This document shows positions 5,386-29,088 of a stretch of DNA of 58,288 nucleotides, piece after piece; the first letter of the stretch is position 1; each line of letters begins with the position of its first letter. The notes under the pieces are model-generated. The model was given only the letters and a program-made list of their open reading frames with translations, searched no databases and was not told where the DNA came from. Source of the DNA: a virus (lineage: Duplodnaviria; Caudoviricetes); the IMG/VR virus record IMGVR_UViG_3300023174_000192, positions 1 to 58,288 of that record; one strand, written 5' to 3'. Position numbers and translations under genes: made by a program.

Positions 5386-5680
5386 CTCCAATAAAGCATG
5401 GTTCATCAACCACGAACAACTAACCAATATTATCATATACAAGGCGGGGCAAGGGGACCCTTCATCTAAACTAGAGAAAAAGGGGTAGGGTGATTTGGGG
5501 AAGTTACTAAGAGATTACCAAAAGTTGTGGAAAATTCTATAATTTTTGAAAATTGCCCATGAACCGTGGAAAACTTGGGTTCGGGTGTTGTGGCGGGTGC
5601 GGGAGTTCCTCAGGGGGGTTAAGAAATCGCAAGCTGCCGATGGTGCGATGCACAATAGGGCAAGGGACCCGTTGTGCGGT

Positions 5681-8534: not shown

Positions 8535-8990
8535 TTACACGGTTGGATTTATGAAGAACCAAGCGGCGACGGAGGGACCGAATACCCCTATGACTTTATT
8601 GGTGTGACCGTCGTAAATTTTGACATCTTTCTCTCCGCCGTGTGCCAACACCCTGTCGGTAACCACTTCCATCGCTTCACTAAGTTCTTCACAGCCTACA
8701 GTGTCGTAGTACTTAGCCTCTGTCTCCACGATGTACTTGGGCAATGGTTGCTCTTCCGCTTTATCAAATTCTTGTATAAAGTCGGAGTAATCCCAGTTAG
8801 TGACCCTTTGGAATATCGCTGCCAGATCTTCTGGGGTGTTATTACGGCTGACGTCCCCAAGGATGTTACCGTCCATGAGGAGAGCGACTTCTGTTGTGTC
8901 GTGCGTATCTGGCACTAGGCTCAGTTCTGCGCCCCTAGTCAGTCTGATTTTAAGCTGTTGCATGGTAACCGTCCTTGTCGTAGGTTTCAA
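8535..8990 (-). CDS. Hypothetical protein
   Basis: 151-aa ORF in operon. Confidence 0.6.
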   Translation of the reverse strand: MKPTTRTVTMQQLKIRLTRGAELSLVPDTHDTTEVALLMDGNILGDVSRNNTPEDLAAIFQRVTNWDYSDFIQEFDKAEEQPLPKYIVETEAKYYDTVGCEELSEAMEVVTDRVLAHGGEKDVKIYDGHTNKVIGVFGPSVAAWFFINPTV

Positions 8991-9177
8991 TTAGAATCTC
9001 AAGACCTTTATTGGTAATATGAGACATATCCTGCGTAATACGCTCTTGTAGATAACGCTGGAGATCGTGCACATTAAGTGTCTGTATGTACTCGGCATCC
9101 TGCATACTAAGAGTACGCAGTAACTCGTTGCGATGGCGAGCTTCAAATACTTTGTCTTCCATCACACCATACTCCAC
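8950..9177 (-). CDS. Hypothetical protein
   Basis: ORF in operon. Confidence 0.5.
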   Translation of the reverse strand: MEYGVMEDKVFEARHRNELLRTLSMQDAEYIQTLNVHDLQRYLQERITQDMSHITNKGLEILIETYDKDGYHATA

Positions 9178-9256
9178 ACGATAATTGCTGCGATAAAGCA
9201 GGCGATGCCTACTAGTTCAAACAGATCTTCCAAAAAGTTTACGACGAATTGCTTAA

Positions 9257-9502
9257 TCATGCCGCCACCTCGTCACTTACAAACAAAGCTGGCATACCGT
9301 CTTCAATGCAGATTTGGTTAAACCATTCTGCGTAGTCTGCCCAGTCTGGCTCTTTGCCACCAGCTTTCCACAGGGCTGTTTCTTCTTTAACCATTGCCAT
9401 TGGTTCATGCAGCTCGCACTGCATCCAGTCGGACATATCGTCAAAGTGCATACGCAGGATGCGATAAGCCATTGTGAATTCTTGGTAAGACATCTTGGTC
9501 AT
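9257..9502 (-). CDS. Hypothetical protein
   Basis: AGAAAGGG RBS and upstream promoter. Confidence 0.65.
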   Translation of the reverse strand: MTKMSYQEFTMAYRILRMHFDDMSDWMQCELHEPMAMVKEETALWKAGGKEPDWADYAEWFNQICIEDGMPALFVSDEVAA

Positions 9503-9544
9503 TGGTCGGCCCTTTCTGTGGCTCAGACATTTATTTACAATACC

Positions 9545-9585
9545 AGTATAGCTGTAGATATTGCCCTGACAATCACTATTTTGTC
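9545..9585 (-). promoter_or_regulatory. Phage early/middle promoter (GAYAAAAT-N5-TTG class)
   Basis: GACAAAATAGTGA-TTGTCA-16 bp-TATACT. Confidence 0.65.
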
Positions 9586-9746: not shown

Positions 9747-10070
9747 TCAAAGGCCACTGACGCTCCTCCCAAACAGCTTTTCAAGTGTTTCGTACCGCCC
9801 GTAGGCAGACCAGCACTTGAAGTCAGCACTGCCTTTCCAGTCCCAAATGGCGCAGATGTCACCATCTATTTTAAAGGACCAGCTCCACCGCACTTTATCT
9901 TCATCGTCACTGACATTAGGCTCAAAGCCTATTGCCTTCACCATCATGGGGTAGTCGTACCCTACGATGCTGTGGGTTTTGCTACTCAGTATGGGGTGGT
10001 CACATACTTCAATAGCGGGTTTTTTGCGAAACATCAATACCGTGTTCATGTTCATCCCCTTAAATGTCAA
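9747..10070 (-). CDS. Hypothetical protein
   Basis: Contains the FG.P...DK...W......IWDWK pattern common in phage early proteins. Confidence 0.6.
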   Translation of the reverse strand: MTFKGMNMNTVLMFRKKPAIEVCDHPILSSKTHSIVGYDYPMMVKAIGFEPNVSDDEDKVRWSWSFKIDGDICAIWDWKGSADFKCWSAYGRYETLEKLFGRSVSGL

Positions 10071-10425
10071 TGGTTATTCTTGCGCCGTTGAGGGTATCGC
10101 GGATTTTGTCTGTGATACCATCTTCCGAAGCTGACTCTTCAAGGTTGTCAAGCCTGCTTTCAGTGTCCGCAACTTTGTCGTCTAGTGTAGAAAAGTCTTC
10201 TTCTAGCCTAGCTGTGCGCTCGTCAAGAATTTGCAGGCTGCTCGTTATGTTTTCAATACCTTGTAGTCCGTCAAACAAAAGCTCAAAGCGGCGCAAGCGG
10301 TTTTCTAGTTTTTCTATTTGTTCGGCTTGAGAAACAGTTTTATCTACCAGCGTACTGAAATACCGGACGGTGTTGGATATGCTGTACTCAAACTGTTCAC
10401 TTAACTTTTCATTGATGTCGGTCAT
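10060..10425 (-). CDS. Coiled-coil hypothetical protein
   Basis: Heptad-rich acidic sequence; AGGAG RBS. Confidence 0.65.
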   Translation of the reverse strand: MTDINEKLSEQFEYSISNTVRYFSTLVDKTVSQAEQIEKLENRLRRFELLFDGLQGIENITSSLQILDERTARLEEDFSTLDDKVADTESRLDNLEESASEDGITDKIRDTLNGARITIDI

Positions 10426-10505
10426 TTCCACTCTCCTGAAAAAACATAGCTGACTACGATAAATATGGCGACTGCCACTACTAGTCCGTGCATGGTTGAA
10501 GTTCC

Positions 10506-10838
10506 TTAGGTATGGATGGACCATTCGTGGTTTTCGCCATCACTGACCATGCGGACACTAAGGTTGTCTTTAGTTTGTGATGTGCCGTGATAAATTAGGC
10601 CACCGTTGAGCAAACGGCCTGTTTTATCGCTGATGGCCCAACCAAAACTATACTCTGCCCAGTCCTTGCCAATGGACAAGGTTACTTCTTCATGGCGAGG
10701 ATTGTGTGCGTAGTTTGCAGCTAGAAACGTAAGTCTAGACCATGCCTTGCTGAATTGGTCGTAAGCATCAACAGTTTCTGCAAAGCTACGAACATCGTGG
10801 AGATGTTCTAGGTCATGGATAACTACATTGCATTTCAT
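10506..10838 (-). CDS. Hypothetical protein
   Basis: AGAAAGGAG RBS; ends NGGLIYHG...WSIHT, a recurring phage motif. Confidence 0.7.
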   Translation of the reverse strand: MKCNVVIHDLEHLHDVRSFAETVDAYDQFSKAWSRLTFLAANYAHNPRHEEVTLSIGKDWAEYSFGWAISDKTGRLLNGGLIYHGTSQTKDNLSVRMVSDGENHEWSIHT

Positions 10839-10880
10839 AACGAGGCTCCTTTCTACGAGCTAATACCAGTAACAAACCCT

Positions 10881-10921
10881 ATAGTAATGTATGACTTACT
10901 ACAGACAACAGTTATTTTATC
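10881..10921 (-). promoter_or_regulatory. Phage early/middle promoter (GAYAAAAT-N5-TTG class)
   Basis: GATAAAATAACTG-TTGTCT-16 bp-TACTAT. Confidence 0.55.
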
Positions 10922-10922
10922 T

Positions 10923-11108
10923 TTATTTTTCAGTATTTTCTCGTTTGTATCGCCGTGCTTTATCAAATCCTTCGTGCACACATTCTTCGCAGATAATACC
11001 GATGTGATTTGTGTGCTCTAACACGGTGAGTTCTACGCAGAGTGCGATTTTCTGACAGCGTTCACACTCTTCGTCTACGTAAAAGAAGAAAGGAAGTTCT
11101 TTAGCCAT
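10923..11108 (-). CDS. Small Zn-finger-like protein
   Basis: CERC...CEEC pairs; start overlaps the GcrA stop. Confidence 0.55.
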   Translation of the reverse strand: MAKELPFFFYVDEECERCQKIALCVELTVLEHTNHIGIICEECVHEGFDKARRYKRENTEK

Positions 11109-11569
11109 TAGAGGATATTCTTTCTGAATACGATATCTCTGTGAGTTTGACACCAGCTCCCGAACCCGACAACTGACTCTCCACAGCAGATTGTATCTTT
11201 TCCTTGGGTCTCTCCTATCACATAGGAACATTCAAAACCTGCCCTGCGATAAATGAGCTTTACATAACTACCCTCTCTCTCTTTGAGCGGTGAGGCCATT
11301 GCAAAGTCAATTCCTGTTTCAGGCTCGATGGGAGATCGTATAATTTTCCCAAGACGAGGCACGGCTTTGGGAGCGACTTTTTTCGGGCGAGAGACAGCAG
11401 ACATAACATTTACACGGGTGAATGCCTGCTTACCACGAGCCCTAAACAACATGCCTATCACGCTGTTGCGAGTTCTCCCTAACCTTTGGGCTATAGCAGC
11501 AGCAGTAGCCCCGCGTTTGGACTCTTCGATGGCAAAGATACGGTCCTCGACACTCCAATCATTATACAT
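11108..11569 (-). CDS. gcrA: GcrA-like cell-cycle regulator
   Basis: N-terminal W......G.TA..IA..LG.TRNSVIG...R HTH and C-terminal C.Y.IG......CCG......SWC..H Zn motif. Confidence 0.85.
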   Translation of the reverse strand: MYNDWSVEDRIFAIEESKRGATAAAIAQRLGRTRNSVIGMLFRARGKQAFTRVNVMSAVSRPKKVAPKAVPRLGKIIRSPIEPETGIDFAMASPLKEREGSYVKLIYRRAGFECSYVIGETQGKDTICCGESVVGFGSWCQTHRDIVFRKNIL

Positions 11570-11795
11570 GGTGTCCTCCATTAAACAGTTCGTGCACAGA
11601 GTGGGCAATTTGTTCTTCTAACTTGTTGTGTTTGATTTCCTCGCCTACTTCCATTTCCAGCAGCTTTTTGAACTTCCGCCGAGCGAGGATTTCTGCCACA
11701 GCATACAGATCTTGTGTTTCTTGGTCCCTACGGATGTCCGCTCCAGCGGTTTCAATTTGCACCCATCTATAAGCAGCTTCTAACAGTGCACTCAT
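11562..11795 (-). CDS. Hypothetical protein
   Basis: Overlapping ORF in operon. Confidence 0.6.
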   Translation of the reverse strand: MSALLEAAYRWVQIETAGADIRRDQETQDLYAVAEILARRKFKKLLEMEVGEEIKHNKLEEQIAHSVHELFNGGHHV

Positions 11796-14300: not shown

Positions 14301-14806
14301 TAAATTAATCCTTTCGCTGCAAAGTCACTACGACCAGTTACGTCTTTGGCAAGGGACATCATTGCTTTTGTCCCTCTAGGTATGATGCCGCCCAGTTTTG
14401 CTACGAGTTCATAGCTAACGCTTGGCGGGACAAAAACAGTTTCATCTGTGCCTTCAACCACACCAAACATTATGGGATGCCCATTGACGCTGTGCCCATG
14501 ACGTTGAATAGCTACCAAATCCTCAACGAAAGTAGGTTTTGGCAGTCTATTAACTTGCACGGGGCTAGATTCAGCGCGGGTGAATTCGTGTTTAACAGGT
14601 GCATAGCCTATGTTTTCTATTTCTATTTCTATGCCGAGGTATTTTTGTAGCTTTTCAATGGAATACTCACTAGGGACGTTTTTAAACTTCAGCCATCCGT
14701 AAATGGTTGAAGTATCAAGGCCCGTCGCGTAAGTGAGCGGTTTAATCCCACCTGCCCTTTGTAGGGAAATAGCTATTATCATGAGTGGGGAGTCATTTAA
14801 TTTCAT
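14300..14806 (-). CDS. HTH-containing protein
   Basis: L..ATGLDTSTIYGW.....PS...IEKL Cro/XRE-like HTH. Confidence 0.55.
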   Translation of the reverse strand: MKLNDSPLMIIAISLQRAGGIKPLTYATGLDTSTIYGWLKFKNVPSEYSIEKLQKYLGIEIEIENIGYAPVKHEFTRAESSPVQVNRLPKPTFVEDLVAIQRHGHSVNGHPIMFGVVEGTDETVFVPPSVSYELVAKLGGIIPRGTKAMMSLAKDVTGRSDFAAKGLI

Positions 14807-15272
14807 GTTGTTTCTCCATAAACCACGGTACTTCACGTTTAGTCCACACAGCGATATCAGATTTTGCACCCCTGTAGTAATTGTGATATGCAAAAACTGT
14901 ATCACGATGTTTGTATTCGTCAGGCATTGCCTGCGCGAATTTAGTAAAACCCCTACTAGTAAGCCCTACGGGAGGGCACTTGACTAGCGTTAATACTTCA
15001 GCACACGCATGTATTTTTCTGTAACGATAAGTATACTCATCGCATAGAGCGCGACCTAAGTTCCAAAGCCATTTATAGTTCTCAATACTTTGTCCCGCCC
15101 ACACAGTACATGGATGGTTAGCATGAGTAGCTTTGTAAGGAGCTTCTTCGCCATAGCGATCGTACACAGCACAAAGCATCTGTGCTGTTTCCAGCGGCAT
15201 TTTAACGATGTGCTTATCGCAATGGAACTTGGCTGCTTCTACAGGTTGAGTGCTCAGAACAAATATATTCAT
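14793..15272 (-). CDS. Pyrimidine dimer DNA glycosylase / endonuclease V-like protein
   Basis: MNIF.L..A..HCDKH.VKM.LE.AQML, YK.TH.NHP...W, EYT.RY.K.H, F.QAMP motifs. Confidence 0.8.
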   Translation of the reverse strand: MNIFVLSTQPVEAAKFHCDKHIVKMPLETAQMLCAVYDRYGEEAPYKATHANHPCTVWAGQSIENYKWLWNLGRALCDEYTYRYRKIHACAEVLTLVKCPPVGLTSRGFTKFAQAMPDEYKHRDTVFAYHNYYRGAKSDIAVWTKREVPWFMEKQHEIK

Positions 15273-15535: not shown

Positions 15536-15576
15536 AGTATATTACGTTACAATATCATTGCAAGCATCATTTTGTC
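15536..15576 (-). promoter_or_regulatory. Phage early/middle promoter (GAYAAAAT-N5-TTG class)
   Basis: GACAAAATGATGC-TTGCAA-16 bp-TATACT. Confidence 0.65.
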
Positions 15577-16120
15577 AAACACCCTTTAATTTTTGTCTGG
15601 TGCTTTCGATCCACTGGATCACGGGTTTTACCCTGTCAAATTCCAGTGTGCCGAGGAATTTGACATGCAGGTACTTATACGCATTGATGTATACGGGGTC
15701 AAAATAGTGGTTACCGAGTTTAATCTGCTCGGCACTGAACATAAGTAGTTCCAGCATATCGCAAATTTTTAGCTGCCGTTCTTCAATTTCGCTCAAAGCG
15801 AATTGCAGCCCCAACATTTGCTCGGCTTTCTTTTCGGCTTTTTGCAAGGCTTCTGCAAACTCAGGAAAATTCCATTTACTTGTAGAAGGGATATCTCCAA
15901 TGAGAATTTCTGCTACATCATGGTAAAGGGTTGCTAGAATAAGCTGCTTACTCGCATCCGGCCATACTTCGTTCAGCAGGGTAGCAACACCCCAAGAATG
16001 TGCGCTCACTGTTTGGCTGTCTCCCACAGTAGGTACGGTATGAAATCTTTTGATATACGCCGCCGAACGCACTGTCTGCATACGTTCAATGAGCGGCGGC
16101 TTATCCGTCGTGCTTATCAT
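15575..16120 (-). CDS. HD-domain 5'-deoxynucleotidase / dNTP hydrolase (YfbR-like)
   Basis: RFH, V..HS, L.HD.AE...GD.P...K, K..D..E motifs. Confidence 0.85.
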   Translation of the reverse strand: MISTTDKPPLIERMQTVRSAAYIKRFHTVPTVGDSQTVSAHSWGVATLLNEVWPDASKQLILATLYHDVAEILIGDIPSTSKWNFPEFAEALQKAEKKAEQMLGLQFALSEIEERQLKICDMLELLMFSAEQIKLGNHYFDPVYINAYKYLHVKFLGTLEFDRVKPVIQWIESTRQKLKGV

Positions 16121-17997
16121 TTCTTTGCCTTTTCAAAACTTAGTTTCGCTTCCCCCCAATTAGGGCCGAATTCTGCGTCCACCACACTTGGTACTGCGAG
16201 TTCCACGCAGTTTTCCATAATCTCTGCTATTTTCTTAGCTACAGCGGGATCACCCACACTAATATCCAGCTCGTCATGAACTTGGATCATGGGCATAATG
16301 CCTTGTTCATACAGCAGCACCATTGCCTGCTTTGTTTGATCGGCAGCAGACCCCTGTATGAGCCTGTTCAGAGCCTTGTAGGTAAAAGCCCTACGTATAC
16401 TAGCCCCGTGCTCTGCATGGGCGTCCTTGTAGCTTTGTGGCTTATGTATGCCATACTTCATAGGTTCCCAAAGGTCAAAGCGGCATCGCCTGCCTAGCAG
16501 TGTCCGTATAACCCCTTTAGTAGAAGCCCTGTTAGAAGTGTAGTCACTTAACTGCCGCACGAAGGGGACGCGCTCATGGTAAATTTTAAACAGTTCTTCA
16601 GCTTCCGGCAGGTCTAGCCCAAGCTGGTCCGCCAATTTATTTTTGCCCATCCCATAGAAAAGCCCTAAATTGATATCCTTAGCCTTTTTGCGTGGGACAC
16701 CCACAATATCGGCAGCAATCTGGTGGAAGTCTGAATACTTATCTTTTTGGTACTCCTCTACAAAATCGGCAGCACCCGTAAGATCTAGCAAACTCGCATA
16801 ATGAGCCACTAACCGAGGTTCTTGGCTGCTATAGTCAAAAGCCCCCCACAACTGCCCTTCTTCTGGCAGAAACAAGCTACGGATCATAGGGCCAATTTCT
16901 TGGTCACGGGCAGGCAACTGCTGTAGATTAGGGTCGCTATAGCTAAAGCGTCCTGTTACCGTGCCGCCTTCGTCGCTACGCAATGGGTGTATTTCAGCAT
17001 GGATACGGCCCTTGTGCTGATGTTTAAGGATTGCGTCGATAAAGGTAGTGTACGCCTTATTCAATTCGCGAGCCTGAACAATCATCCTAGGAAGCGGATG
17101 TTTATGGGTTTTTAAAAAGCTCTTACCAAAACTAGGTGCGTCGGTCTTAGCTGTCCTGCCGTATTCTAATTTAGCAGCATCAAAAGCGCGAGCAACACTA
17201 GCAGCAGCCCATATATCAACAGGGACACCATACTCTCGTAAAATATGACTGAGAATATCTCGCTCTTTATTCTGTAGCTCGATTTTAATTTTCTCAGCCT
17301 TTTCCAAATCAACTCGTACACCTTTTTCCCTCATCTTTATCGTGACACGTTGAACTTTGAGCTCTAACTCAACAATGCTACTGATTTCTTCCTTTATAAT
17401 CAGCCCTTTAAAATGCTGATACAACCGTAAAGTCATTGCAGCATCTTGCTCTGCGTAGGCTCCTACAAAAACGGCAGGAAGTCGGTACATCTCACTTTTA
17501 GCGTTAACCCCGAAGTCTTTAGCTGACTCGTTTAGCAAGCGTTCATCTTTACGCTCGTTTAGGTAATCCCTGCCCAGATTGTTCAAGCTGTAGCTAAAGC
17601 GGTTCTCATCTAACAAAGGTGCAATAACCATCGTATCTGCAATAAAGCCTAGGACTTCTATCCCCTCAGCTTTAAGCCAACCGACATCATATGGCGCGTT
17701 ATGGAAAACATAGGTTTTTGTAGCATCACTGCAAAGGTCTTTAACCCATGCAAGGGTGCGACGAGGATCCAGATTACCACCATTAAGATGACGGATAGGG
17801 AAGTACCAAGCATCACCGTCAACAGCAACAGCCACTCCAATAACGTGACCATCGCCGCGAGGCCAACCACTTCCACGAACAGTAAGGTGCGGATCATACG
17901 TTTCAAGGTCAATCGCCACTTCTTTTGCGTGTGATAAATTGGGGAAGCTGTCCGGCATCACCCATTCGGTCGGCTGTGTGAACAAAGGTATTTGCAT
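16117..17997 (-). CDS. polA: DNA polymerase, family A (3'-5' exonuclease + polymerase)
   Basis: AIDLET, HNA.YD, YA..DA exo motifs; TGRFS..PNLQQ, DYSSQE.R (A), K.INLGL.YGMG (B), QVHDEL (C). Confidence 0.95.
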   Translation of the reverse strand: MQIPLFTQPTEWVMPDSFPNLSHAKEVAIDLETYDPHLTVRGSGWPRGDGHVIGVAVAVDGDAWYFPIRHLNGGNLDPRRTLAWVKDLCSDATKTYVFHNAPYDVGWLKAEGIEVLGFIADTMVIAPLLDENRFSYSLNNLGRDYLNERKDERLLNESAKDFGVNAKSEMYRLPAVFVGAYAEQDAAMTLRLYQHFKGLIIKEEISSIVELELKVQRVTIKMREKGVRVDLEKAEKIKIELQNKERDILSHILREYGVPVDIWAAASVARAFDAAKLEYGRTAKTDAPSFGKSFLKTHKHPLPRMIVQARELNKAYTTFIDAILKHQHKGRIHAEIHPLRSDEGGTVTGRFSYSDPNLQQLPARDQEIGPMIRSLFLPEEGQLWGAFDYSSQEPRLVAHYASLLDLTGAADFVEEYQKDKYSDFHQIAADIVGVPRKKAKDINLGLFYGMGKNKLADQLGLDLPEAEELFKIYHERVPFVRQLSDYTSNRASTKGVIRTLLGRRCRFDLWEPMKYGIHKPQSYKDAHAEHGASIRRAFTYKALNRLIQGSAADQTKQAMVLLYEQGIMPMIQVHDELDISVGDPAVAKKIAEIMENCVELAVPSVVDAEFGPNWGEAKLSFEKAKK

Positions 17998-18127
17998 TTG
18001 ACTTCACTTTCATGGCGTGACCACACGGGCAGCGGGGCCATCTATTCTTTAGGTTTCGGAAGGTCACTGTGCGACTTTCCTTGCCACACTCACAAACCGC
18101 TTGCATTGTCTTGTTCAACAATTCCAT
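17909..18127 (-). CDS. Small Zn-ribbon protein
   Basis: CECG...CPCG; bridges Nmad1 and polA. Confidence 0.5.
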   Translation of the reverse strand: MELLNKTMQAVCECGKESRTVTFRNLKNRWPRCPCGHAMKVKSNANTFVHTADRMGDAGQLPQFITRKRSGD

Positions 18128-18416
18128 TACCGATCATCTCCGCTTCTACAAGTAGCAGATATCTACGTAGATCGCGTATATCATCAATGATGCCTGTGCT
18201 GCTAGGGTCGTCAGCAATAGTTGCAAAAACATCGTATTTCATTTTCCCAACCTGATTTTCTATGCGGTCCCATTTACGGGCAAGCATCATAAAAGCCCCT
18301 ACTCCGCCGCGACGTTTCCAGCTATTGCCATAGCTTTCTTGTGCGTGGCAGAGCTTAACGAAGTCTTCATTGGCTAAGTTCTGCACAATATTCAAATTAT
18401 GTGTAGGTTCTGTCAT
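18090..18416 (-). CDS. Nmad1/DUF1599-like all-alpha NTP pyrophosphatase
   Basis: YG.SW...G.......RK..R and D...DL..Y.LL motifs; location inside a modification cluster. Confidence 0.7.
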   Translation of the reverse strand: MTEPTHNLNIVQNLANEDFVKLCHAQESYGNSWKRRGGVGAFMMLARKWDRIENQVGKMKYDVFATIADDPSSTGIIDDIRDLRRYLLLVEAEMIGNGIVEQDNASGL

Positions 18417-19387
18417 TTTAGCCTCCGCTGCATCCATTCTACACATGCCTTACGCCAATCGAGAGATGTGATTGTTTCAGCTATGCGAATACCGTCTAGC
18501 TTGTCTCCGTTTTTCCAAACCCTGTATGCTCTACGCATGGGTCCGGCCACGCCATTGAAAAATGAATTGGAGTACAGTTCATCTTCAAAGTCTAAGAAAA
18601 AACAGCTAAGGTCAAACATAAACATTTGGGGGTCCGTAACCAGTGGTTCAGGCTTGTAGTGCCCCCCATTTTCGCCGAGATGTAGGTATGGGTCGTAATC
18701 TGGCGAGATGTTTTCTACCTTCTTAAGCGTTTCCACATAAGCATGGAAACTGTCGCTCATCTGATGGTAGTAACCGACACTAACTCCGATCATAGCTGCA
18801 ATGTATTCTTGCAGCATAGACATGTGCACAGCATTGGCTCCGTATGCCCCCCACACCATATCATTGCTGCGACAGCACACTGTCATATCCAACCTGCCTT
18901 CCCGCACTTTAAAGTAGATATGGGTATTGCACGGGATATCTTTGTAGTCGTTATCTGACCGCAGATCATGGACAGGATCCCACATAGCAAGGACCGTTCG
19001 CCTGTCATTGGGGTAGTTTTTCAACCTGTAGATAACATTAACAAGCTGGTCTTTATCAAACCAGTTACGCCATCTTGCGCCATAAGCACCGTGGAAGCTG
19101 TGCCCATTAGTAGAATATTCTTTCATACGCTTATTGTAGTAGCTAATCCACTCTACATCGTCACGACCAGCCAACATCCAAAGCCCTTCTAGGCAATGGA
19201 AAAACGGGTTAGCATCGCGTTCAGGGTAAAACAAAACGCGCTCACACGGATTTGTGTAAGTAGTGATAACAGGGCCAATCATTTCATGAACTGCCCCTGC
19301 ACGGCTTTCAGCCAAAGGAGCAGTTTTTATCATTTGTACGCCTAAGTAGAGTGCCTCAGAGACGTTTCTAGCCTGTATTGTAAACAT
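18413..19387 (-). CDS. Thymidylate synthase-family enzyme, probable dUMP hydroxymethylase
   Basis: YG.R, DQL, RR, DIPCN catalytic Cys, RSND.VWGAYGAN (Asn = uracil specificity), S.H.Y; divergent from canonical ThyA LPPCH/RS.D..LG.PFN. Confidence 0.85.
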   Translation of the reverse strand: MFTIQARNVSEALYLGVQMIKTAPLAESRAGAVHEMIGPVITTYTNPCERVLFYPERDANPFFHCLEGLWMLAGRDDVEWISYYNKRMKEYSTNGHSFHGAYGARWRNWFDKDQLVNVIYRLKNYPNDRRTVLAMWDPVHDLRSDNDYKDIPCNTHIYFKVREGRLDMTVCCRSNDMVWGAYGANAVHMSMLQEYIAAMIGVSVGYYHQMSDSFHAYVETLKKVENISPDYDPYLHLGENGGHYKPEPLVTDPQMFMFDLSCFFLDFEDELYSNSFFNGVAGPMRRAYRVWKNGDKLDGIRIAETITSLDWRKACVEWMQRRLK

Positions 19388-19394
19388 AACCCAC

Positions 19395-20363
19395 CTATAT
19401 GCTTTTAAAGAACTCGCGGTATTGCTCGCCTATTACAACGTAGTTGTGCAGATTAACTAGGGAAGTAAGCCCGTTAGCACGTATGTCGCGCAAGCCTTCT
19501 TCGCTAGGGATACTGTTAAGGATGTCGGCTAGTTCCTCAGCATTTTCTACTGCCAAGCAATTTACAAACGGGACCATATCGTCGTTGGGCCGTATCCAGC
19601 TTTTATGAATAATGTTCACACATTCAGCATCAAATGCCTCAAGGAAAGTGTACTGACTACCCCCGCCATCACCCTTAATTTGGCTCATATCTACATTGTA
19701 GTGAGACTGAAACAGTAATTCAAGGGCCGCTGTTTTTGTGCGGGGATACGCAGCTTTTGATTGAACCCATTCTGGATAATTGGGAATAATCTTAAACCGA
19801 GTATAGATACGGTTTTCAAAACCACGGATCTGTATTTTAAAGTCGTCTGGCAACAGCCTGTTTGCATCCAACAGGATATCGGTGTGCTTATCAAAATCAA
19901 TACGGCTGACGCTTATTGCATGGGTGCGTTTATCGTTAATTTCGTACACACCCCTCATCATATAGGGGTGACGGATAAAGGTAGCTTGTGGGATTGTTTC
20001 AAGCCCCACCTTACGAATAACAATGACCCGACCATCCAAAGCAGGAAGATTCTTGAGTTCCGTAGGATCATGAACAACTAATCCAGCCCCACCTTCTTTA
20101 TATAGGGTTGAACTTTCTTCTTGGAAGGTTTTTGCCGCCGCTACAATCAGTTTCTTATTAGTGCGGGATAAGGCTTCAGCCATACTAATATTACGATAAC
20201 GCTTACCGTAACCGAAATCACGGGTAGTTTTTTCAGAACGCGAACGAATTTTAAATAATTCGACTTCAACTTCTGATTCTTGCAGAACATCAATAAGATG
20301 TGATGTGTAGGTGACCCAACCCCCATAAGGATTAGGGCTAAGATAAAATAGGTCAACTTTCAT
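19395..20363 (-). CDS. GT-B fold glycosyltransferase (putative DNA glycosyltransferase)
   Basis: N-terminal YGGW.TY..HL, HD, SRIDFDKH (cf. GR....K) and GGGSQYTFLEA (cf. E.FG...LEA) of GT4-like enzymes. Confidence 0.75.
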   Translation of the reverse strand: MKVDLFYLSPNPYGGWVTYTSHLIDVLQESEVEVELFKIRSRSEKTTRDFGYGKRYRNISMAEALSRTNKKLIVAAAKTFQEESSTLYKEGGAGLVVHDPTELKNLPALDGRVIVIRKVGLETIPQATFIRHPYMMRGVYEINDKRTHAISVSRIDFDKHTDILLDANRLLPDDFKIQIRGFENRIYTRFKIIPNYPEWVQSKAAYPRTKTAALELLFQSHYNVDMSQIKGDGGGSQYTFLEAFDAECVNIIHKSWIRPNDDMVPFVNCLAVENAEELADILNSIPSEEGLRDIRANGLTSLVNLHNYVVIGEQYREFFKSI

Positions 20364-20376
20364 AGCATACCCTTTC

Positions 20377-21240
20377 TTAGGCTGATGCTTTGTATAAACT
20401 ACGGGGAGTTCCTTGGCCTAGCTTAACACGCATATATTTATCCCACTCGCACAAGCTGTGTTCAATCGTACGCATATCAACTTCATTCATCGGGACATGT
20501 GGCTCTAGGTATTCACTGCTGCATTGCAACAATTCATACATTTCTGTATTCCAGTCGCGCTTGCTAGGGGTATCTGTTAGCATACGACCATGAATACGAT
20601 TCAGCCCACGCTTTGCTCCGGGACCAGCATTAGCCCATGTCATCCTATCGTGTGCCAATGGCATGATCGTGTGGTTTAGATCTGTAACCACTTCATAAGC
20701 CATAAAGCCTCCGCCACCCCAGCCTACAAACAGACCGAGATGGTTGTGTATTTGCTGGAGGGAGTTGCTGCCCAACCCTGTTTCAGTGATTTGTTTACGA
20801 TCATTCCAAACAGGAGTGAGAAAGTAGTCTACAACCACCTGCTCTTTAGGCAAACTAAGCCCCTGATTAGTGATTATGTAGGCTCCTGTAAACACTTTTT
20901 GCTTTTTATCTAGCATAGACCTAGCAAGCTGCTTAGTGCTTTCAGGATCCCACTCTGTTACCCAGTCATGGGCCGCTGCAAATTCCATCGTACCGAACAT
21001 GCGGAAAAAGCAGCAGTTGAAAAATATTTCTTCAGGAGGCCTGTTGTGATGCGGACCCGTAAACTTCTTACGCATCCACACCGTTGTTTTATCTAACTCA
21101 CGGAAAGCATTCGTAAACTTATACGTTTGCAAGATAGTATCCGTGGTCCAAGGCTGCGGTTCCCCCGCAGCCTTTTTGAGGTAGATACGATGCCGCTCAT
21201 TGATCCAATAGAAAAACAATTCTACGTTTTCTTTGATCAT
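20377..21240 (-). CDS. 5-hmdU DNA kinase helical domain (aGPT-PPlase clade 1) protein
   Basis: F..WI.ER..I......PWT.D.IL..Y.FTN..R..D..T, F.GAY.I, G.FMAYE...DL, GPGA.RGL, EH.LCE.DKY motifs. Confidence 0.85.
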   Translation of the reverse strand: MIKENVELFFYWINERHRIYLKKAAGEPQPWTTDTILQTYKFTNAFRELDKTTVWMRKKFTGPHHNRPPEEIFFNCCFFRMFGTMEFAAAHDWVTEWDPESTKQLARSMLDKKQKVFTGAYIITNQGLSLPKEQVVVDYFLTPVWNDRKQITETGLGSNSLQQIHNHLGLFVGWGGGGFMAYEVVTDLNHTIMPLAHDRMTWANAGPGAKRGLNRIHGRMLTDTPSKRDWNTEMYELLQCSSEYLEPHVPMNEVDMRTIEHSLCEWDKYMRVKLGQGTPRSLYKASA

Positions 21241-21244
21241 AGCA

Positions 21245-21829
21245 TTAATTACCGAGTGCGATCATTTTCTGGTTAACCGCCCAACGGATAAACGTAATCG
21301 CTGTTTTACGATCACTACCGCTTTCAATGTAAGCATCTACTGCTTCACCTACAGTTTTGCTCGCATAGATCATTTCAAGGTTTTTCTTGCGGACGCTGTT
21401 GTCGCGACCGGAGATCTTTTCTACCAAGATTGTAATGGTATCTTTATCATTAGACTTAGGAGCAGGGGCCGCTTTAGGGGCTTTTTCAACTTTCGGGGTA
21501 TTTTCAACGGCGACAGCTTCGTTCATAACAGTTTCCCTTTTCTGGTGGGTGATAGCTTCTTTCCGCACATAGTCGTGCAGTTTAGAAGCGGATACTTTCT
21601 TGTTTGGAAACCCTCTTTTAAAAGACCAAAGGGGGTCACTAACAGAAAGATTCATGCTACGCCAGATGGCGTCAAGTTCTTCTTTAGAATAGTTTTCTTC
21701 TAACTGCCCTAACTCTTTGTAAACAATGCTTGAATCGTTCACGATTTTAGCTTCATGGGCCTGTTTTAAGGAAGAAAACTGATAAAACTCGTAAGGAGCT
21801 TTATCACCTTCGCAGATTATAAAGTACAT
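21245..21829 (-). CDS. Hypothetical protein within the modification cluster
   Basis: ATG 21829 with AGAAAGGAG RBS; two domains joined by a KAPKAAPAPK linker. Confidence 0.65.
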   Translation of the reverse strand: MYFIICEGDKAPYEFYQFSSLKQAHEAKIVNDSSIVYKELGQLEENYSKEELDAIWRSMNLSVSDPLWSFKRGFPNKKVSASKLHDYVRKEAITHQKRETVMNEAVAVENTPKVEKAPKAAPAPKSNDKDTITILVEKISGRDNSVRKKNLEMIYASKTVGEAVDAYIESGSDRKTAITFIRWAVNQKMIALGN

Positions 21830-21876
21830 ATTCTGTCTCCTTTCTACGACAGTTACCATACCAAGGTAAGGGGTGA

Positions 21877-22554
21877 TTATTGCACTGACAACTGCTTTTT
21901 TCTCCACCCGCCGATTGTATGCCACAATTTTTCGTTGCGCTTTGGTTCCTTCACAGTTTCCCAATTCGCGAACATTGCAGTGATCTTTAATGCTTGGTGA
22001 TACCACTTAGGGCTGGTCCCCGCAGGACAGTTGTAGTGCAGTTCCATGACGACTTGCTCGACACTTTCTGGCATACGGGTTACAAAAAAGTCGTATTCTG
22101 CACCTTCGCAATCACACTTAATGCACTGCGGTTTGACTTTATCGAGAACCTTGGAATACTGATGGGCTTTTACAGTGATTTTTTCACGACCACGGTAAGA
22201 AAACATAGAGTAGCTCCCGTGATTCGTACCCGTAGTGAGGTAAAAGTCAATGGTTGTATTTTCACCACGGATAATTGCCCCATTGAAGATCTTAGCCCGT
22301 GGGTCATCGCCCACATTCTTTTGCAGAAGGGCGAAGTTTTCTGGTTCAGGCTCAAAGGCCCAAACTTCTTTCGCGCCATTTTTCAAAGCATAAGAGGTAT
22401 ATGCTCCAAAGTTAGCACCGATATCCAGTACCACTTTGTCTTTAACATCCATCCAGCCGTAGCTACGGGCTACTTCTTTGATGATTTCAGTATCGAACGA
22501 GTTTTTCCTAATGGTCAAGCCACTAGGATGAACAACGAGTTCTTTTTCCACCAA
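21877..22554 (-). CDS. FkbM-family SAM-dependent methyltransferase
   Basis: VLDIGANFG, AFEPEPENF..L..N, IKCDCEGAEY, MELH. Confidence 0.9.
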   Translation of the reverse strand: MVEKELVVHPSGLTIRKNSFDTEIIKEVARSYGWMDVKDKVVLDIGANFGAYTSYALKNGAKEVWAFEPEPENFALLQKNVGDDPRAKIFNGAIIRGENTTIDFYLTTGTNHGSYSMFSYRGREKITVKAHQYSKVLDKVKPQCIKCDCEGAEYDFFVTRMPESVEQVVMELHYNCPAGTSPKWYHQALKITAMFANWETVKEPKRNEKLWHTIGGWRKKQLSVQ

Positions 22555-25565: not shown

Positions 25566-27095
25566 TCACAACACATCTTTCCCCCGCTTTAGCTCAGGTA
25601 AATCAATTTGTTCTTCTGGCTGCAATGGTCCTGTAAAGTATTCCTGTGGCAAGCTCCAAACATGGATCCCCTTACCTTTGATGCGCCAAAACATTTTTTC
25701 AGCACTAAGGTCGGTTAGCCGTAGCGTGACACGATTTGAAGTGTAGTGGTTAAAGTTATTCACAGACAAATGTTTTTTAATGTCTTTGATCTGAAAATAA
25801 ACTTTTCCCTCTAGCCATACTGCAATCCCCTGCAAAATATCGTCACGTGTTTCACCACGTGCCCTATCACAGCAGAAAGAAAACAACAGGTCTTCAAACT
25901 CACCCTTATGCGTAGCGTCTGGCGGCACTTCCACAATAGTGACATTATCCAGCAACATCTGCATACGTGTTTGCCATGCCCGACCATTAACCGTGATAGG
26001 AAACTTATTGATTTGAGACACACACTCCCTTTGGAACTGAGACTGCGTAACCAAAGCCTCCGTGCTTAACTCTACACGCTTACTGTCTACAGTAAGGATC
26101 CAGATGGGTGGGTCGCCATCAATTTTGGTTAAGCTGGAAAGGTCATTGTTCGTTTGTCCAGGACCAACCCCAAACTTACGTGTCAAGCACATACTTTTGT
26201 TGCAGAAACTAGCAATAGGTTGATCTTCACACTTGTAGAAATAATCTTTTTTCTGCAACTGCTTTATGATGGTTCCTACTTCTGCATGGCCCAATGGCGG
26301 CTTGAGGTACTCCAGATTGTATTTAGCAATGAGCTGTTCCCAGTTATCGGGATCGGAAAGCCGAGCATACACCCCTAAACTAAAAAGGGAGTTGTTACGA
26401 CTGCCTTCACCAAAACCCTGAGCACATAGCTGTTGCAAGCATGGCGGACCGTCTGGCAGCAGTTCTTGTGCCTTGGAGGGGGCTATCTTAGTGGCTAGGA
26501 ACTTAGCGGGGTCTGATACCCGTTTGGTAGCAAAAGCTATGAATTCTTCAACCCCTAGCGAATTGCCTTCCAAATCAAACCCGTAGCGTGTAGTCCTGTC
26601 TCCAGCGAAATAAGGCATATTCAAGAAATTGCCTGTATCACCACGATCTACAAGCAGGTGTGTTTGTTTTGGAAACACTTCGCAACCAGCGGACCCAAGA
26701 GCAGCGGCAATTTCTGTCAGCTTTGGTTGAAGGTCCTCGGCAGGTATTTCTTTCTTAAAGAAAAAGAAAATATGCGCCCCGCCACTCTTACTACGGCAAA
26801 CCACTGCGGGGAGATTATACTTTTCTAGGCGTTTGGTATAATCCGCATGATTGATATTATACTCATCTATATCAATAGCACCCCAATGGCATGAGTTATT
26901 ATCTTTGATAGGGATAATGCCCAGCCCAACTTCACCATCTAAATGCTTTTGCCAATGTTCAATGGTGGTTTGTTCACGCAGAACTCTTGCAGCACCTTTT
27001 TTCTTGCCTTCTGCGTCTGAATTAGAAACTTGGAATGTACCATGTGCACGGTCATTGCCTGCGAAAAGTTCAAATAACTTTTGAGCATTCTTCAT
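25566..27095 (-). CDS. Archaeo-eukaryotic primase (AEP) with PriCT-like domain
   Basis: W..HL.G..GLG, AIDID, RSKSGGAH, GN..N.PY, PPCL, EGSRNN.LF; start at ATG 27095. Confidence 0.85.
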   Translation of the reverse strand: MKNAQKLFELFAGNDRAHGTFQVSNSDAEGKKKGAARVLREQTTIEHWQKHLDGEVGLGIIPIKDNNSCHWGAIDIDEYNINHADYTKRLEKYNLPAVVCRSKSGGAHIFFFFKKEIPAEDLQPKLTEIAAALGSAGCEVFPKQTHLLVDRGDTGNFLNMPYFAGDRTTRYGFDLEGNSLGVEEFIAFATKRVSDPAKFLATKIAPSKAQELLPDGPPCLQQLCAQGFGEGSRNNSLFSLGVYARLSDPDNWEQLIAKYNLEYLKPPLGHAEVGTIIKQLQKKDYFYKCEDQPIASFCNKSMCLTRKFGVGPGQTNNDLSSLTKIDGDPPIWILTVDSKRVELSTEALVTQSQFQRECVSQINKFPITVNGRAWQTRMQMLLDNVTIVEVPPDATHKGEFEDLLFSFCCDRARGETRDDILQGIAVWLEGKVYFQIKDIKKHLSVNNFNHYTSNRVTLRLTDLSAEKMFWRIKGKGIHVWSLPQEYFTGPLQPEEQIDLPELKRGKDVL

Positions 27096-27106
27096 AACTA
27101 CCCCAT

Positions 27107-27137
27107 AAAACAAAAGGGGACGGCACAATGCCGCCCC
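27107..27137 (-). terminator. Rho-independent terminator between SSB and primase
   Basis: GGGGCGGCA-TTG-TGCCGTCCCC followed by TTTTGTTTT. Confidence 0.7.
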
Positions 27138-27152
27138 CTACTTCCTCACTTA

Positions 27153-27953
27153 TTAGAAAGGAACATTATCGCTTGCTTCACGGAGTTCTTCAGTAGGCTC
27201 TTTAACCTTAACTTCACCCGCACGAACGGATTGGCTGAAAGCCACTGCCATTTGGAAAAGTTCTACATCTTCCTCTGCTTTTTCATCAAGCATACGACCA
27301 CGGGTAATTTCCCACCCGAACCAATTACCCTTATCATTGCTTTCAGGGACAGTGCGGAGGTCGTATACGTGTGACATCATAGGCAGAGTGTACAACTTAC
27401 CTTCGCTATTACGCGCTGTAAGTGACTGCATATTGGTAGTCCAAACACGAGCCTTTTTAAGCTGAGTGCTTGTCATTGTAATCAGGCAACGCTGTGGTCC
27501 AAGTTCAGGATGCAGGAGCAATACGAAATACTGCGCCGTATTAGTCAACAAGTTACCGTTAGGAAGGATATCGTTGTTACGATCATCCTTACGGGTAGTG
27601 TGGACAGCATGGTCGTCTGGGCCATAGCTTGTAACATAGCCACCACCCTTTTCACGAGGTGTCCACTCAACATAGCGGCGATTGTAGTAGCAAGGGATTA
27701 CAGAAACCCCCACAGTACCATCGTACGCTTCGTTAAGTACCGTGTTGTACATCATGCCTGCTTCAGCATCCTTCACATAAGCCCCATCACGCTTATTAAC
27801 CTGTGGCGACAACTGCCCCAGAATACGCAGGAAGGGGATAGCTAAGTCTTGAGTGCTGACATCTTCTAGCCCGACACCAGCAAAGTTTTCAAAACTCATC
27901 GGTGAAACAGTGGTTAAAGCTGTTTCTTTTTTAGCAACCATATCTTTCGCCAT
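27153..27953 (-). CDS. Putative single-stranded DNA-binding protein
   Basis: G.E....DL.IPFL..LQ..SP, M.STQLK..R.W, N.KG.W.GW, acidic tail ending VPF. Confidence 0.7.
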   Translation of the reverse strand: MAKDMVAKKETALTTVSPMSFENFAGVGLEDVSTQDLAIPFLRILGQLSPQVNKRDGAYVKDAEAGMMYNTVLNEAYDGTVGVSVIPCYYNRRYVEWTPREKGGGYVTSYGPDDHAVHTTRKDDRNNDILPNGNLLTNTAQYFVLLLHPELGPQRCLITMTSTQLKKARVWTTNMQSLTARNSEGKLYTLPMMSHVYDLRTVPESNDKGNWFGWEITRGRMLDEKAEEDVELFQMAVAFSQSVRAGEVKVKEPTEELREASDNVPF

Positions 27954-27956
27954 GAC

Positions 27957-28499
27957 TCATTTTCCTTTGATCTTTGTTTTACGCCCAGTGAAAACACCGA
28001 ACAAATCTTGAGGTACTGGACGCCCTGCCTCGATTTGCTCTTTTACAAACGCCTTTAAAGTCATAGGTTCTACCCATTCTTTTTGTGACGTATTGTAACC
28101 CTTGTCGGAAAGATCATTTATAAGATCTTTCGCTACATTGTCTTCGTTACGCCCGAAGCCAATGGAAACTACGTTTTTAATCAGGTCACCAAAACTGTTA
28201 GACCGCAGCCAATTAAAGGCATCTTGTGTGCGGTCTTTTGGAATATTGGCCCCATAAAAAGGTGTGACAGTAACAATAGAACCATCCGCCATGCGAAGCT
28301 CACGCAACCCGTGCTCTTCCAAAGCGGCGGGAAGCAGGTCTTCCGAAACTTTACGGAGTTCTTCCTTTTTGGCTTTTGCGAGGTAGTCAAGTGATTCTAT
28401 TTCATGCTCCAGATCCAACTGCCTACGGACCAAATTAGCGACACCTTTTAAATCCCCTTCGCCAAGCGACGAAAGGCTAGTAGCTGCTTGTTCAAACAT
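27957..28499 (-). CDS. Conserved replication-module protein
   Basis: AF.WLR....GD.IKN and V.P.TLKAFVKE motifs, typically found upstream of this SSB type. Confidence 0.7.
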   Translation of the reverse strand: MFEQAATSLSSLGEGDLKGVANLVRRQLDLEHEIESLDYLAKAKKEELRKVSEDLLPAALEEHGLRELRMADGSIVTVTPFYGANIPKDRTQDAFNWLRSNSFGDLIKNVVSIGFGRNEDNVAKDLINDLSDKGYNTSQKEWVEPMTLKAFVKEQIEAGRPVPQDLFGVFTGRKTKIKGK

Positions 28500-28849: not shown

Positions 28850-29055
28850 ATAATGCCCGTGCCAAAAATATAAGACAAGCACTATTTTATCTTACTTTTA
28901 CTAATAGGGGGGGTTTTGGCAAACGGATGCAATAAAAATATTTACACGCCAATATCTGATATCCCGCTATCCCACTATATTTAGTTTTTCCGTCGGCGCA
29001 ATTTTTGTCCGATGAGAAAATAGTTTTTGTTTTTTGCCCAGCCCCCCTATATAGT
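28850..29055. promoter_or_regulatory. Divergent promoter pair
   Basis: Minus: GATAAAATAGTGC-TTGTCT-17-CATTAT (28850-28891). Plus: GAGAAAATAGTTT-TTGTTT-17-TATAGT (29014-29055). Confidence 0.6.
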
Positions 29056-29088
29056 AAAGTTCCAGCCAACAGAAAGGGCAGTGGTCAA

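Follow-up and report, generated by a model that had tools for sequence, protein, structure and literature searches.

A putative kinase-less thymidine-hypermodification cassette with an exchangeable glycosyltransferase gene in an M6/PhiJL001-like siphophage

The IMG/VR virus record IMGVR_UViG_3300023174_000192 (Duplodnaviria; Caudoviricetes) is a virus record of 58,288 bases with a completeness estimate of 98%. The whole stretch is called the window below. The subject of this work is a minus-strand gene cluster at 15575-22554, which an initial annotation, made from the sequence alone, had proposed as a new pathway for adding a sugar to 5-hydroxymethyluracil (hmU) in DNA. An open reading frame (ORF) check placed all of the genes it had named on the minus strand at the coordinates given here. 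A gene for an FkbM S-adenosylmethionine (SAM)-dependent methyltransferase (21877-22554; PF05050 4.3e-12, TIGR01444) is followed by genes for a conserved 194-amino-acid (aa) protein (21245-21829), whose homologs lie at the same place in relatives, for HMUDK_hel, formerly aGPT-Pplase1 (20377-21240; PF18723 5.2e-50), and for a 322-aa GT-B (GT4-like) glycosyltransferase (GT; 19395-20363), which was recognized from an AlphaFold2 model and Foldseek. Then come a thymidylate-synthase homolog, predicted to be a deoxyuridine monophosphate (dUMP) hydroxymethylase (18413-19387; PF00303 5.3e-21, phrog_5131 8.6e-107), a 118-aa ORF that is a possible DUF1599/Nmad1 relative by a protein Atlas lead only (18090-18446), a family A DNA polymerase with a 3'-5' exonuclease (16117-17997; PF00476 6e-61, PF01612 2e-10), and an HD/YfbR-like 5'-deoxynucleotidase (15575-16120; PF12917 4.5e-14). 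Family searches confirmed the HD nucleotidase, polymerase A, synthase homolog, HMUDK_hel, and FkbM. No DNA-level relative of the region was found by megablast among 50,697 deposited phage records. At the protein level, the replication module resembles those of the M6/YuA/PaMx11 and PhiJL001 siphophages (Mesyanzhinovviridae). We consider it fairly probable that this cluster serves a marine M6/PhiJL001-like siphophage as a kinase-less cassette for thymidine hypermodification.

The synthase homolog carries the motifs DIPCN and RSND.VWGAYGAN, just as they had first been read. It matched 109 sequences in the Protein Data Bank (PDB) at E <= 0.001. The closest solved relative is the CMP hydroxymethylase MilA (1.6e-22), true thymidylate synthases follow at about 1e-12, and the protein scored below the cut-offs of all six NCBIfam ThyA models. 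According to passages of PMC13326640, N177 (E. coli numbering) selects dUMP, and Asp at this position selects deoxycytidine monophosphate (dCMP). The same passages describe how the bulky L143 excludes water, with Asp or Glu in its place being the signature of hydroxymethylases, give D169N as the mark of 5-hydroxylases, and equate a residue of MilA with E. coli L143. In the homolog of the window, the catalytic Cys (E. coli C146) is kept: where the homolog has the Cys of DIPCN, T4 thymidylate synthase has that of its PCH motif. The Asp three residues before this Cys aligns to the Asp of MilA; the equivalence with L143 rests on this MilA alignment, since the HMMER alignment to T4 thymidylate synthase has a gap there. 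The GAN motif places its Asn at the N177 position, opposite the Asn of PFN in T4 thymidylate synthase; MilA has Asp there. Asp169 is retained (RSND), and the homolog is therefore not a 5-hydroxylase.

The synthase homolog is 44% identical to M6 gp58, 43% to PaMx11 gp51, and 43% to PhiJL001 gp24. The motifs D-x-[PS]-C-N and RS.D..G..G.N were found in 87 of 89 distinct homologs from all the loci described below, including these three proteins. The DNA modifications of M6 and PaMx11 derive from 5-hydroxymethyldeoxyuridine (5-hmdU) (PMC5889632, PMC8989533). Based on the residue signature, the shared motifs, and the origin of the M6 and PaMx11 modifications, the homolog is predicted to be a dUMP hydroxymethylase (5-hmdUMP synthase). 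The active-site residues and the orthology to M6 gp58 and PaMx11 gp51 thus favor the proposal that hmU is made at the nucleotide level.

The GT was modeled with AlphaFold2 from an alignment of 42 homologs (mean pLDDT 93.7, pTM 0.91). When this model was compared with the PDB using Foldseek, at least 484 chains matched at E <= 0.001, and the top 50 listed are nearly all named as GT-B-type glycosyltransferases. The best matches were GlgM, HepE, BshA, MshA, and TarM, with E-values of 1e-10 to 1e-8 and TMq of 0.6-0.72. T4 alpha-glucosyltransferase with hmU DNA (1y6g_A) was at rank 21 among generic GT4 enzymes (E 6.3e-9, TMq 0.70, about 13% identity), and a second structure of the T4 enzyme, 1xv5, was also among the matches. 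Against viral models, two glycosyltransferases of SP-15 (ranks 4 and 14) and several entries named 'DNA alpha-GT' were found. A fold cannot give the acceptor, and DNA as the acceptor is argued here from gene context.

The fold bears out the GT-B label of the initial annotation, but Pfam, PHROG, and NCBIfam models do not match the protein. Pfam gave no match even at E <= 1, including the models of the Glycos_transf_1 type, and PF13524 was found on only 3 of 120 listed homologs. The family has 447 clusters at E <= 0.001 in a metagenome protein collection. A tblastn search of the 50,697 deposited phage records found no match at E <= 0.01. The family was also looked for in 185,579 cellular species genomes by means of peptide patterns, a scan with limited sensitivity, and three contigs of metagenome-assembled genomes (MAGs) matched. 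The family is almost confined to viral contigs. We predict that the GT belongs to an uncatalogued, virus-restricted family and that it is a 5-hmU DNA glycosyltransferase. Co-folding of the GT with HMUDK_hel gave a score of 0.01 in a run without controls, a value that speaks neither for nor against binding.

Next, the gene neighborhoods of the GT family were examined in 79 viral contigs that encode it, with 10 kb of flank on each side searched with the window proteins. The cluster order recurs in dozens of contigs with different backbones, and this recurrence is far beyond chance. The HMUDK_hel gene was present in 33 of these contigs and the synthase gene in 31. Most of the misses are at contig ends; clear exceptions are L059 and L063, where HMUDK_hel is present and no synthase gene lies in the flank. 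The backbones of the contigs linked to these two genes include ones with a polymerase that is only 24-34% identical or absent. The gene order is GT, HMUDK_hel, synthase, and HD in L025, L027, L033, and L038, and HMUDK_hel followed by GT in L023, L024, L029, and L030. Neighboring genes in this group often share overlapping stop and start codons. L059 carries tandem paralogous GT copies ahead of its HMUDK_hel gene (8566-9558 and 9902-11050; 28% identity to each other's query match), which suggests a disaccharide or two alternative sugars.

A second kind of neighborhood was found in 18 of the 79 contigs, where a gene for a Tet/JBP dioxygenase (PF12851, 6.7e-22 for the representative) lies directly upstream of the GT gene. 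In 13 of these 18 contigs, a gene for a ParB_N protein precedes the Tet/JBP gene. The ParB, Tet/JBP, and GT genes form compact operons (in the range L034-L080), such as that of L035 (8462-9097, 9057-9986, and 9983-10987). In passages of PMC13229309, the ParB-Tet/JBP arrangement is that of phage thymine dioxygenases shown to make 5hmU. Those passages give glycosyltransferases as the most frequent co-occurring domain (31%) and mention O-methyltransferases; they show the formation of 5hmU and contain no glycosylated product. The operons look like a complete phage 'base J' pathway, in which a ParB-dependent thymine dioxygenase is followed by a glycosyltransferase.

In a quick maximum-likelihood tree of the GT family, 25 GTs linked to the synthase or HMUDK_hel genes lie on one side, and the GTs linked to Tet/ParB and those of large viruses lie on the other. 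Gene context follows the clades, with 7 label changes compared to a mean of 32 after shuffling, and none of 200 shuffles was as low. Among the contigs in the tree without either gene set, 16 of 21 are large-virus-like, with genes for RNase HII and FEN. This third clade, on large contigs (GVMAG and others, L043-L082), has the GT gene beside RNase HII, a FEN-type nuclease, and an unknown protein of 500-650 aa. A protein of up to 2208 aa (the representative; the cluster median is 1232 aa) is another neighbor of the clade, whose flanks contain no gene for making hmU.

Relatives of HMUDK_hel were used for a second sample. At least 585 relatives were found and the best 80 were taken, which gave 79 loci at 41-65% identity; this sample leaves out the more distant members linked to M6-type kinases. 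Nine of these contigs also belong to the GT-centered set. The synthase gene was present in 76 of the 79 loci and the polymerase gene in 73, yet the GT family of the window was found in only 10. None of the 79 contigs had a homolog of Tet/JBP or ParB. The HMUDK_hel gene precedes the synthase gene in 69 of the loci, and the content of the slot between the two genes was classified. The TET-associated glycosyltransferase TAGT (PF20691) fills it in 39 loci, the GT-B family of the window in 10, and a GT1-type GT-B enzyme (PF13692/PF00534) in 9. A 338-aa protein with no family assignment was found in 8 slots, and 3 slots are empty. A glycosyltransferase of one of three families, which share no curated family match, therefore occupies 58 of 69 slots. 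This position is a hot spot for the replacement of one GT family by another, unrelated one.

Other genes were also seen in the slot. A radical SAM/SPASM gene shares it in 21 loci, and FkbM shares it in 4 of 69, three times with TAGT and once with the GT family of the window. An NrdR-type zinc-ribbon protein lies in the slot of nine related loci (L085:7903-8211). The 338-aa protein may be a fourth transferase family; a profile comparison between it and the GT family of the window was not significant. Examples of slot genes are L086:8202-8987, L117:7891-9195, L118:7889-8905, and L091:7706-8740. Since the GTs are exchanged at a fixed place in a nucleotide-metabolism module, since the GT family of the window also occurs downstream of thymine dioxygenases, and since sugar-tailoring genes share the slot, we propose that the GT acts on hmU in DNA and that the sugar remains on the base. 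Together with the GT-B fold, the 58 of 69 slots with a GT and the 18 of 79 contigs with the GT family after ParB-Tet/JBP genes support the earlier proposal of glycosylation on DNA.

HMUDK_hel matched PF18723 with 170.8 bits (cut-off 25) over profile positions 3-276 of 281 and is 35% identical to M6 gp55, 33% to PaMx11 gp50, and 37% to PhiJL001 gp19. By sequence, no solved structure matched at E <= 1. With its AlphaFold2 model (pLDDT 92.7), Foldseek found nothing in the PDB at E <= 0.001, and the two top rows were PUGT, at E 0.5-0.6. An exhaustive structural aligner also gave PUGT, the solved 5-PmdU glycinyltransferase of PaMx11 (8z2m), as the best match, with Z 11.1 and rmsd 4.2 over 222 residues; for helical proteins, a Z below about 13 may mean a common arrangement, so this value is read with care. 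DUF2419, an enzyme of queuine salvage, and DNA glycosylases of the helix-hairpin-helix type came next. HMUDK_hel has a glycosylase-like fold of this type. Matching by eye set E260-H-S-L-C264-E-W of HMUDK_hel (TIEHSLCEW) against E243-T-I-L-C247-K-W of PUGT (VETILCKW). Of 20 family members compared, which come from many backbones, all 20 have C264; at position 260 they have Glu or Gln. In the parts of PMC11472151 that describe the PUGT mechanism, Cys247 is proposed to attack C6 as the nucleophile, and a metal at O4 is bound by Glu243 and Thr244.

A comparison of the HMUDK_hel family with PaMx11 gp46 using hhalign was not significant (probability 1%, E 0.052). By sequence, HMUDK_hel is a clade-1 relative of the clade-2 amino acid:DNA transferases and not a member of them. 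The N-terminal extensions of its ORFs in L029 and L023 have no domain and were rejected, as they look like over-extended Arg/Gly-rich frames. HMUDK_hel constantly accompanies the synthase homolog and not the GT: it occurs in synthase-route contigs with any of the GT families, and the kinase-based clusters of M6 (gp55) and PaMx11 (gp50) have it as well. It is not needed by the GT family as such, since it is absent from the 18 Tet/JBP operons. The initial annotation had treated HMUDK_hel as a passive part. This does not agree with the conserved catalytic Glu-x3-Cys motif, and the protein may add unforeseen chemistry. Because clade-2 enzymes attack the pyrimidine C6 by means of this motif, HMUDK_hel probably acts catalytically on a C5-substituted uracil, either hmU or a derivative, in DNA.

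Phages such as M6 activate 5-hmdU with a kinase, and the window was searched for the genes of that route. M6 gp51 (clade-2 transferase), gp52 (pyridoxal phosphate (PLP) enzyme), gp53 (radical SAM), and gp54 (5-hmdU DNA kinase) gave nothing better than E = 0.33 by tblastn on the window, and they had no match in the 79 GT-centered or the 79 HMUDK_hel-centered contigs. PaMx11 gp46 and gp49 had no match in the HMUDK_hel-centered set, the sole set searched with them. The window has a canonical Walker A motif in only two proteins, a UvrD helicase and the product of a 121-aa ORF of the structural region (47995-48360), where it begins near the end, at residue 109. A 201-aa 'Terminase_2' protein (7071-7676) was considered as a hidden kinase because M6 gp54 carries a small terminase annotation; it was rejected, as it is not similar to gp54 (E = 14) and has no Walker A motif. 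Without homologs of M6 gp51-54 and without a Walker A kinase candidate, the cassette appears kinase-less. For a genome that is 98% complete, these results agree with the earlier statement that the modification proceeds by a route other than adding an amino acid.

The FkbM protein scored 46.9 bits against 22.7 for PF05050 and 79.1 against 37.7 for TIGR01444. Wherever FkbM was found in or beside the module, a GT was always present. FkbM accompanies the GT family of the window in the window itself, L009/L037, L028, and L095, where a copy beyond those counted below was recognized by Pfam; it accompanies TAGT in L144, L152, and L157 and the GT1 type in L117. The FkbM and GT genes of L028 overlap at the start of the latter. 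In L077, FkbM is encoded 2.3 kb downstream of a gene of the GT family of the window that is linked to ParB. The constant partner of FkbM is thus a GT but no particular GT family, which fits sugar tailoring without proving it. That FkbM O-methylates the sugar is a tentative idea, to which we give somewhat less than an even chance.

The remaining genes of the cluster belong to nucleotide metabolism and replication or are small. The HD nucleotidase is 38% identical to M6 gp59, and its gene lies beside that of the synthase homolog in 26 of 79 GT-centered loci and in 41 of 79 HMUDK_hel-centered loci. It probably removes competing canonical deoxynucleoside monophosphates (control of the dTMP/dUMP pool). 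The polymerase, 36% identical to M6 gp62, must accept the modified deoxynucleoside triphosphate. The 118-aa ORF had been labeled Nmad1, and this name could not be kept, since Pfam gave no match even at E <= 1; PHROGs and NCBIfam gave none either. In the Atlas, the nearest cluster has PF07659 on 11% of its members, and DUF1599 structure rows have TM 0.64-0.67. The protein is probably 108 aa long from an internal Met, as the Atlas sequence begins at residue 11. Its gene was found in 71 of 79 HMUDK_hel-centered loci.

The gene called unknown in the initial annotation is real, and its 194-aa form is more likely than a 253-aa frame extended to a GTG codon, which overlaps the FkbM gene. The shorter form is preferred because the exact 194-aa sequence is in the Atlas and its relatives are 197-213 aa long. 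The protein has no family in Pfam, PHROGs, or NCBIfam, with only weak leads from the Atlas, and its C-terminal third is possibly winged-helix-like. Homologs lie at the equivalent place in 14 of 79 GT-centered loci by tblastn and in 16 loci at the ORF level. In close relatives, the gene is kept between the DUF932/FkbM genes and the HMUDK_hel gene. A 72-aa ORF between the polymerase and 118-aa genes (17909-18127, minus strand) has weak zinc-ribbon-like matches (DUF1922, E 0.0094).

From these results, the following pathway can be proposed. Based on its active-site residues and orthology, the synthase homolog would convert dUMP to 5-hydroxymethyl-dUMP. The HD nucleotidase would trim the competing canonical pool, and the phage polymerase would build hmU into DNA in place of thymine. 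The GT-B enzyme, from its fold and gene context, would then move a sugar from a host nucleoside diphosphate (NDP)-sugar to the 5-hydroxymethyl group of hmU in DNA. The product would be a base-J-like glycosyl-hmU, made without a phosphorylation step, and its linkage would probably be alpha, since the nearest folds are retaining GT4 enzymes. HMUDK_hel, the core partner of the synthase, would probably be catalytic on hmU or a derivative in DNA. In the minority of phages that carry FkbM, this enzyme might O-methylate the sugar. That the virion DNA carries glycosylated hmU is, in our judgment, somewhat better than an even prospect.

Several points weigh against this pathway. The pathway gives the GT a putative acceptor and a putative donor, and the enzyme has no assignment to any curated sequence family. 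Its invariant residues D232, G233, G234, and E242 form a D-x9-E pattern, not the canonical EX7E. No gene for NDP-sugar synthesis was recognized among the window ORFs scanned. Twenty-five of the 79 GT contigs have no hmU-making gene within 10 kb on each side. FkbM was found in only 4 of 79 GT-centered and 6 of 79 HMUDK_hel-centered loci, and in the window, it is 1.5 kb from the GT beyond two genes. HMUDK_hel occurs in none of the 18 Tet/JBP-linked operons. In passages of PMC8989533, M6 gp55, the ortholog of HMUDK_hel, is dispensable for the formation of glycinyl-thymidine in lysates. The catalytic motif that HMUDK_hel retains points to additional chemistry, by which the final base could be altered.

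Such chemistry could make the sugar a transient activator. HMUDK_hel would use its Cys to attack C6, expel the sugar, as phosphate is expelled in M6 and PaMx11, and install another nucleophile, so that the final base would be sugar-free. The PUGT-type E-x3-C-x-W motif with its Cys invariant in 20 of 20 sequences, PUGT as the best structural match (Z 11.1), and the HMUDK_hel and GT genes that adjoin and often overlap in several lineages all agree with this idea, and no kinase is there to provide the usual leaving group. A glycoside is, however, a poor leaving group compared to phosphate by general chemistry, and the GT family occurs without HMUDK_hel in the 18 Tet/JBP loci. The window scans also gave no candidate for handling a donor (PLP, ATP-grasp, or amidotransferase). 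Moreover, FkbM, radical SAM/SPASM, and second GT genes make sense in the slot only if the sugar stays. We regard the transient sugar as quite improbable.

Another possible explanation is that the DNA contains plain hmU, or hmU altered by HMUDK_hel alone, and that the GT and FkbM decorate virion proteins, glycans of the host envelope, or a small molecule. The descriptions of the structural matches show that GT4-like enzymes mostly use cell-envelope or metabolite acceptors, and FkbM enzymes are known from the methylation of natural products and glycans. The 25 GT contigs with no hmU gene nearby and the 3 empty intervals among 69 are also in line with an acceptor other than DNA. The location of the GT gene speaks against it, as it lies inside a replication and nucleotide module, between the HMUDK_hel and synthase genes, where three unrelated GT families including TAGT swap in 58 of 69 loci; so does the placement of the GT family after ParB-Tet/JBP genes in 18 loci. 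The three MAG contigs from the limited-sensitivity scan of cellular genomes argue against an origin from envelope clusters. This explanation seems unlikely to us. A narrower alternative concerns FkbM, which might spare the sugar and methylate the 5-hydroxymethyl oxygen, giving 5-methoxymethyluracil at some sites, another position in DNA or RNA, or a protein. Among NCBIfam models, those of methyltransferases acting on 2'-O positions or bases of RNA gave FkbM weak secondary matches (TlyA 1.4e-7, well short of its cut-off), and the FkbM gene is not adjacent to that of the GT in the window. A GT is nevertheless present at every locus with FkbM in or beside the module, and in L028 the two genes overlap. 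We give a target other than the sugar a low probability.

M6 and PaMx11 (PMC5889632, PMC8989533, PMC11472151) are phages of the same type with an orthologous synthase, HD nucleotidase, polymerase, and clade-1 HMUDK_hel, and they are alike in modifying 5-hmdU in DNA after replication. The thymidine hypermodification system of ViI likewise has the first step and the helix-hairpin-helix protein in common with the cassette. In contrast to them, the window has no gene for a P-loop 5-hmdU DNA kinase, a clade-2 transferase, a PLP or radical SAM enzyme, an FAD enzyme, or an acetyltransferase; a GT and a methyltransferase are there instead, and the hydroxyl would serve as a nucleophile and not be turned into a leaving group. 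The cultured alphaproteobacterial phage PhiJL001 (AY576273) has the same plan, with HMUDK_hel (gp19), a GT, the synthase homolog (gp24), and HD (gp25). Its GT is TAGT (gp22; PF20691, 2.7e-53), whereas that of the window is of the GT-B family, and it has Nmad5 (gp23) and no FkbM in the region examined.

The end chemistry is expected to be the same as in base J of kinetoplastids, where JBP1/2 and the J glucosyltransferase act and the hydroxymethyl group of hmU in DNA receives a sugar. The hmU of the window would, however, be made before replication by the synthase homolog and not by thymine oxidation in DNA; Tet_JBP had no match among the window proteins scanned, and the window has neither Tet/JBP nor ParB. 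The window thus resembles base J synthesis at the second step only. The GT4-like enzyme of the window is probably retaining (alpha), and base J is described as beta in passages of PMC13229309. The logic of the T-even phages is also the same, with a synthase-family hydroxymethylase at the nucleotide level followed by a GT-B enzyme on DNA; these phages have dCMP hydroxymethylase, alpha- and beta-glucosyltransferases, and, in T6, TAGT. Their glucosyl-hydroxymethylcytosine is a well documented sugar on a cytosine derivative of phage DNA, but the base of the window would be uracil (Asn in place of Asp at the N177 position), and the window has an extra conserved helix-hairpin-helix/Cys protein that T-even phages lack. 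In the Bacillus phage SP-15, passages of PMC5977210 describe a thymine-derived base with sugars, a glucosylated and phosphoglucuronolated dihydroxypentyluracil; it has a dihydroxypentyl side chain and a different phage type, and the likeness of the GTs is structural only.

The description of the pathway as new could be kept only in part. Base J of kinetoplastids is, to our knowledge, the only case of a sugar on plain hmU. Iyer and colleagues reportedly defined TAGT, the Nmad domains, and aGPT-Pplase in 2013. The gene architecture was already present in the cultured PhiJL001 (2005), with TAGT, and GTs near thymidylate-synthase homologs or thymine dioxygenases have been noted in published surveys. 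In these surveys, GT-B-like phage enzymes are often near thymidylate-synthase homologs, in about 28% (bioRxiv 10.1101/2023.12.21.572611), and many 5mYOX pathways probably make 5hmU (PMC13229309). Arabinosyl-5-hydroxycytosine is described in phage DNA in a passage of PMC13326640, and amino acids and amines on thymine derivatives of phages are documented in parts of PMC8989533. A literature search of main texts outside subscription journals found no glycosylated hmU in a phage and no GT slot between HMUDK_hel and synthase genes, only predictions and surveys.

The host may be an alphaproteobacterium, judging by a GcrA-like gene and by PhiJL001 as the nearest cultured relative. The gene for this GcrA-like cell-cycle regulator (11108-11608, minus strand; PF07750 5.3e-9) hints that the phage interferes with the control of the cell cycle of its host. 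A T4 endonuclease V-like pyrimidine-dimer DNA glycosylase (14793-15272, minus strand; PF03013 2.1e-6) is encoded just downstream of the HD nucleotidase. It is kept in 18 of 79 GT contigs, and its role may be altered in a phage with modified thymine. The gene for a DUF6065 protein (4555-5442, minus strand; PF19541 6.5e-76) separates that of the large terminase (3120-4610) from the small terminase region (7071-7676). The replication module contains a TOTE-type archaeo-eukaryotic primase (PF22548 1.1e-15) and Pam3 gp34-like and gp33-like proteins (25566-28499, minus strand), and a SNF2-family helicase gene (29005-30534) is the sole large gene on the plus strand.

The cluster is a compact set of four or five genes with a cultured relative, PhiJL001, and should make glycosyl-hmU DNA from a precursor at the nucleotide level. 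It links the clade-1 'aGPT-Pplase' proteins, the TET-associated and GT-B DNA glycosyltransferases, and the ParB/Tet-JBP thymine dioxygenase operons, three subjects kept separate in the literature consulted. The GTs could be of use for labeling 5hmU, and there is practical interest in how such DNA withstands restriction and CRISPR enzymes and in sequencing artifacts in marine viromes. The full combination would be an O-methylated glycosyl-5-hydroxymethyluracil made without phosphorylation and new to viruses, with HMUDK_hel as a second, Cys-dependent catalyst on hmU DNA; taken as a whole, we find this speculative and rather doubtful. If it is true, HMUDK_hel would catalyze a reaction so far unseen in the amino acid:DNA transferase superfamily, and this would account for the retention of the 'dispensable' gp55 by M6-type phages. 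In that case, the exchangeable GT slot would provide marine phages with a natural combinatorial library of thymine glycoforms.

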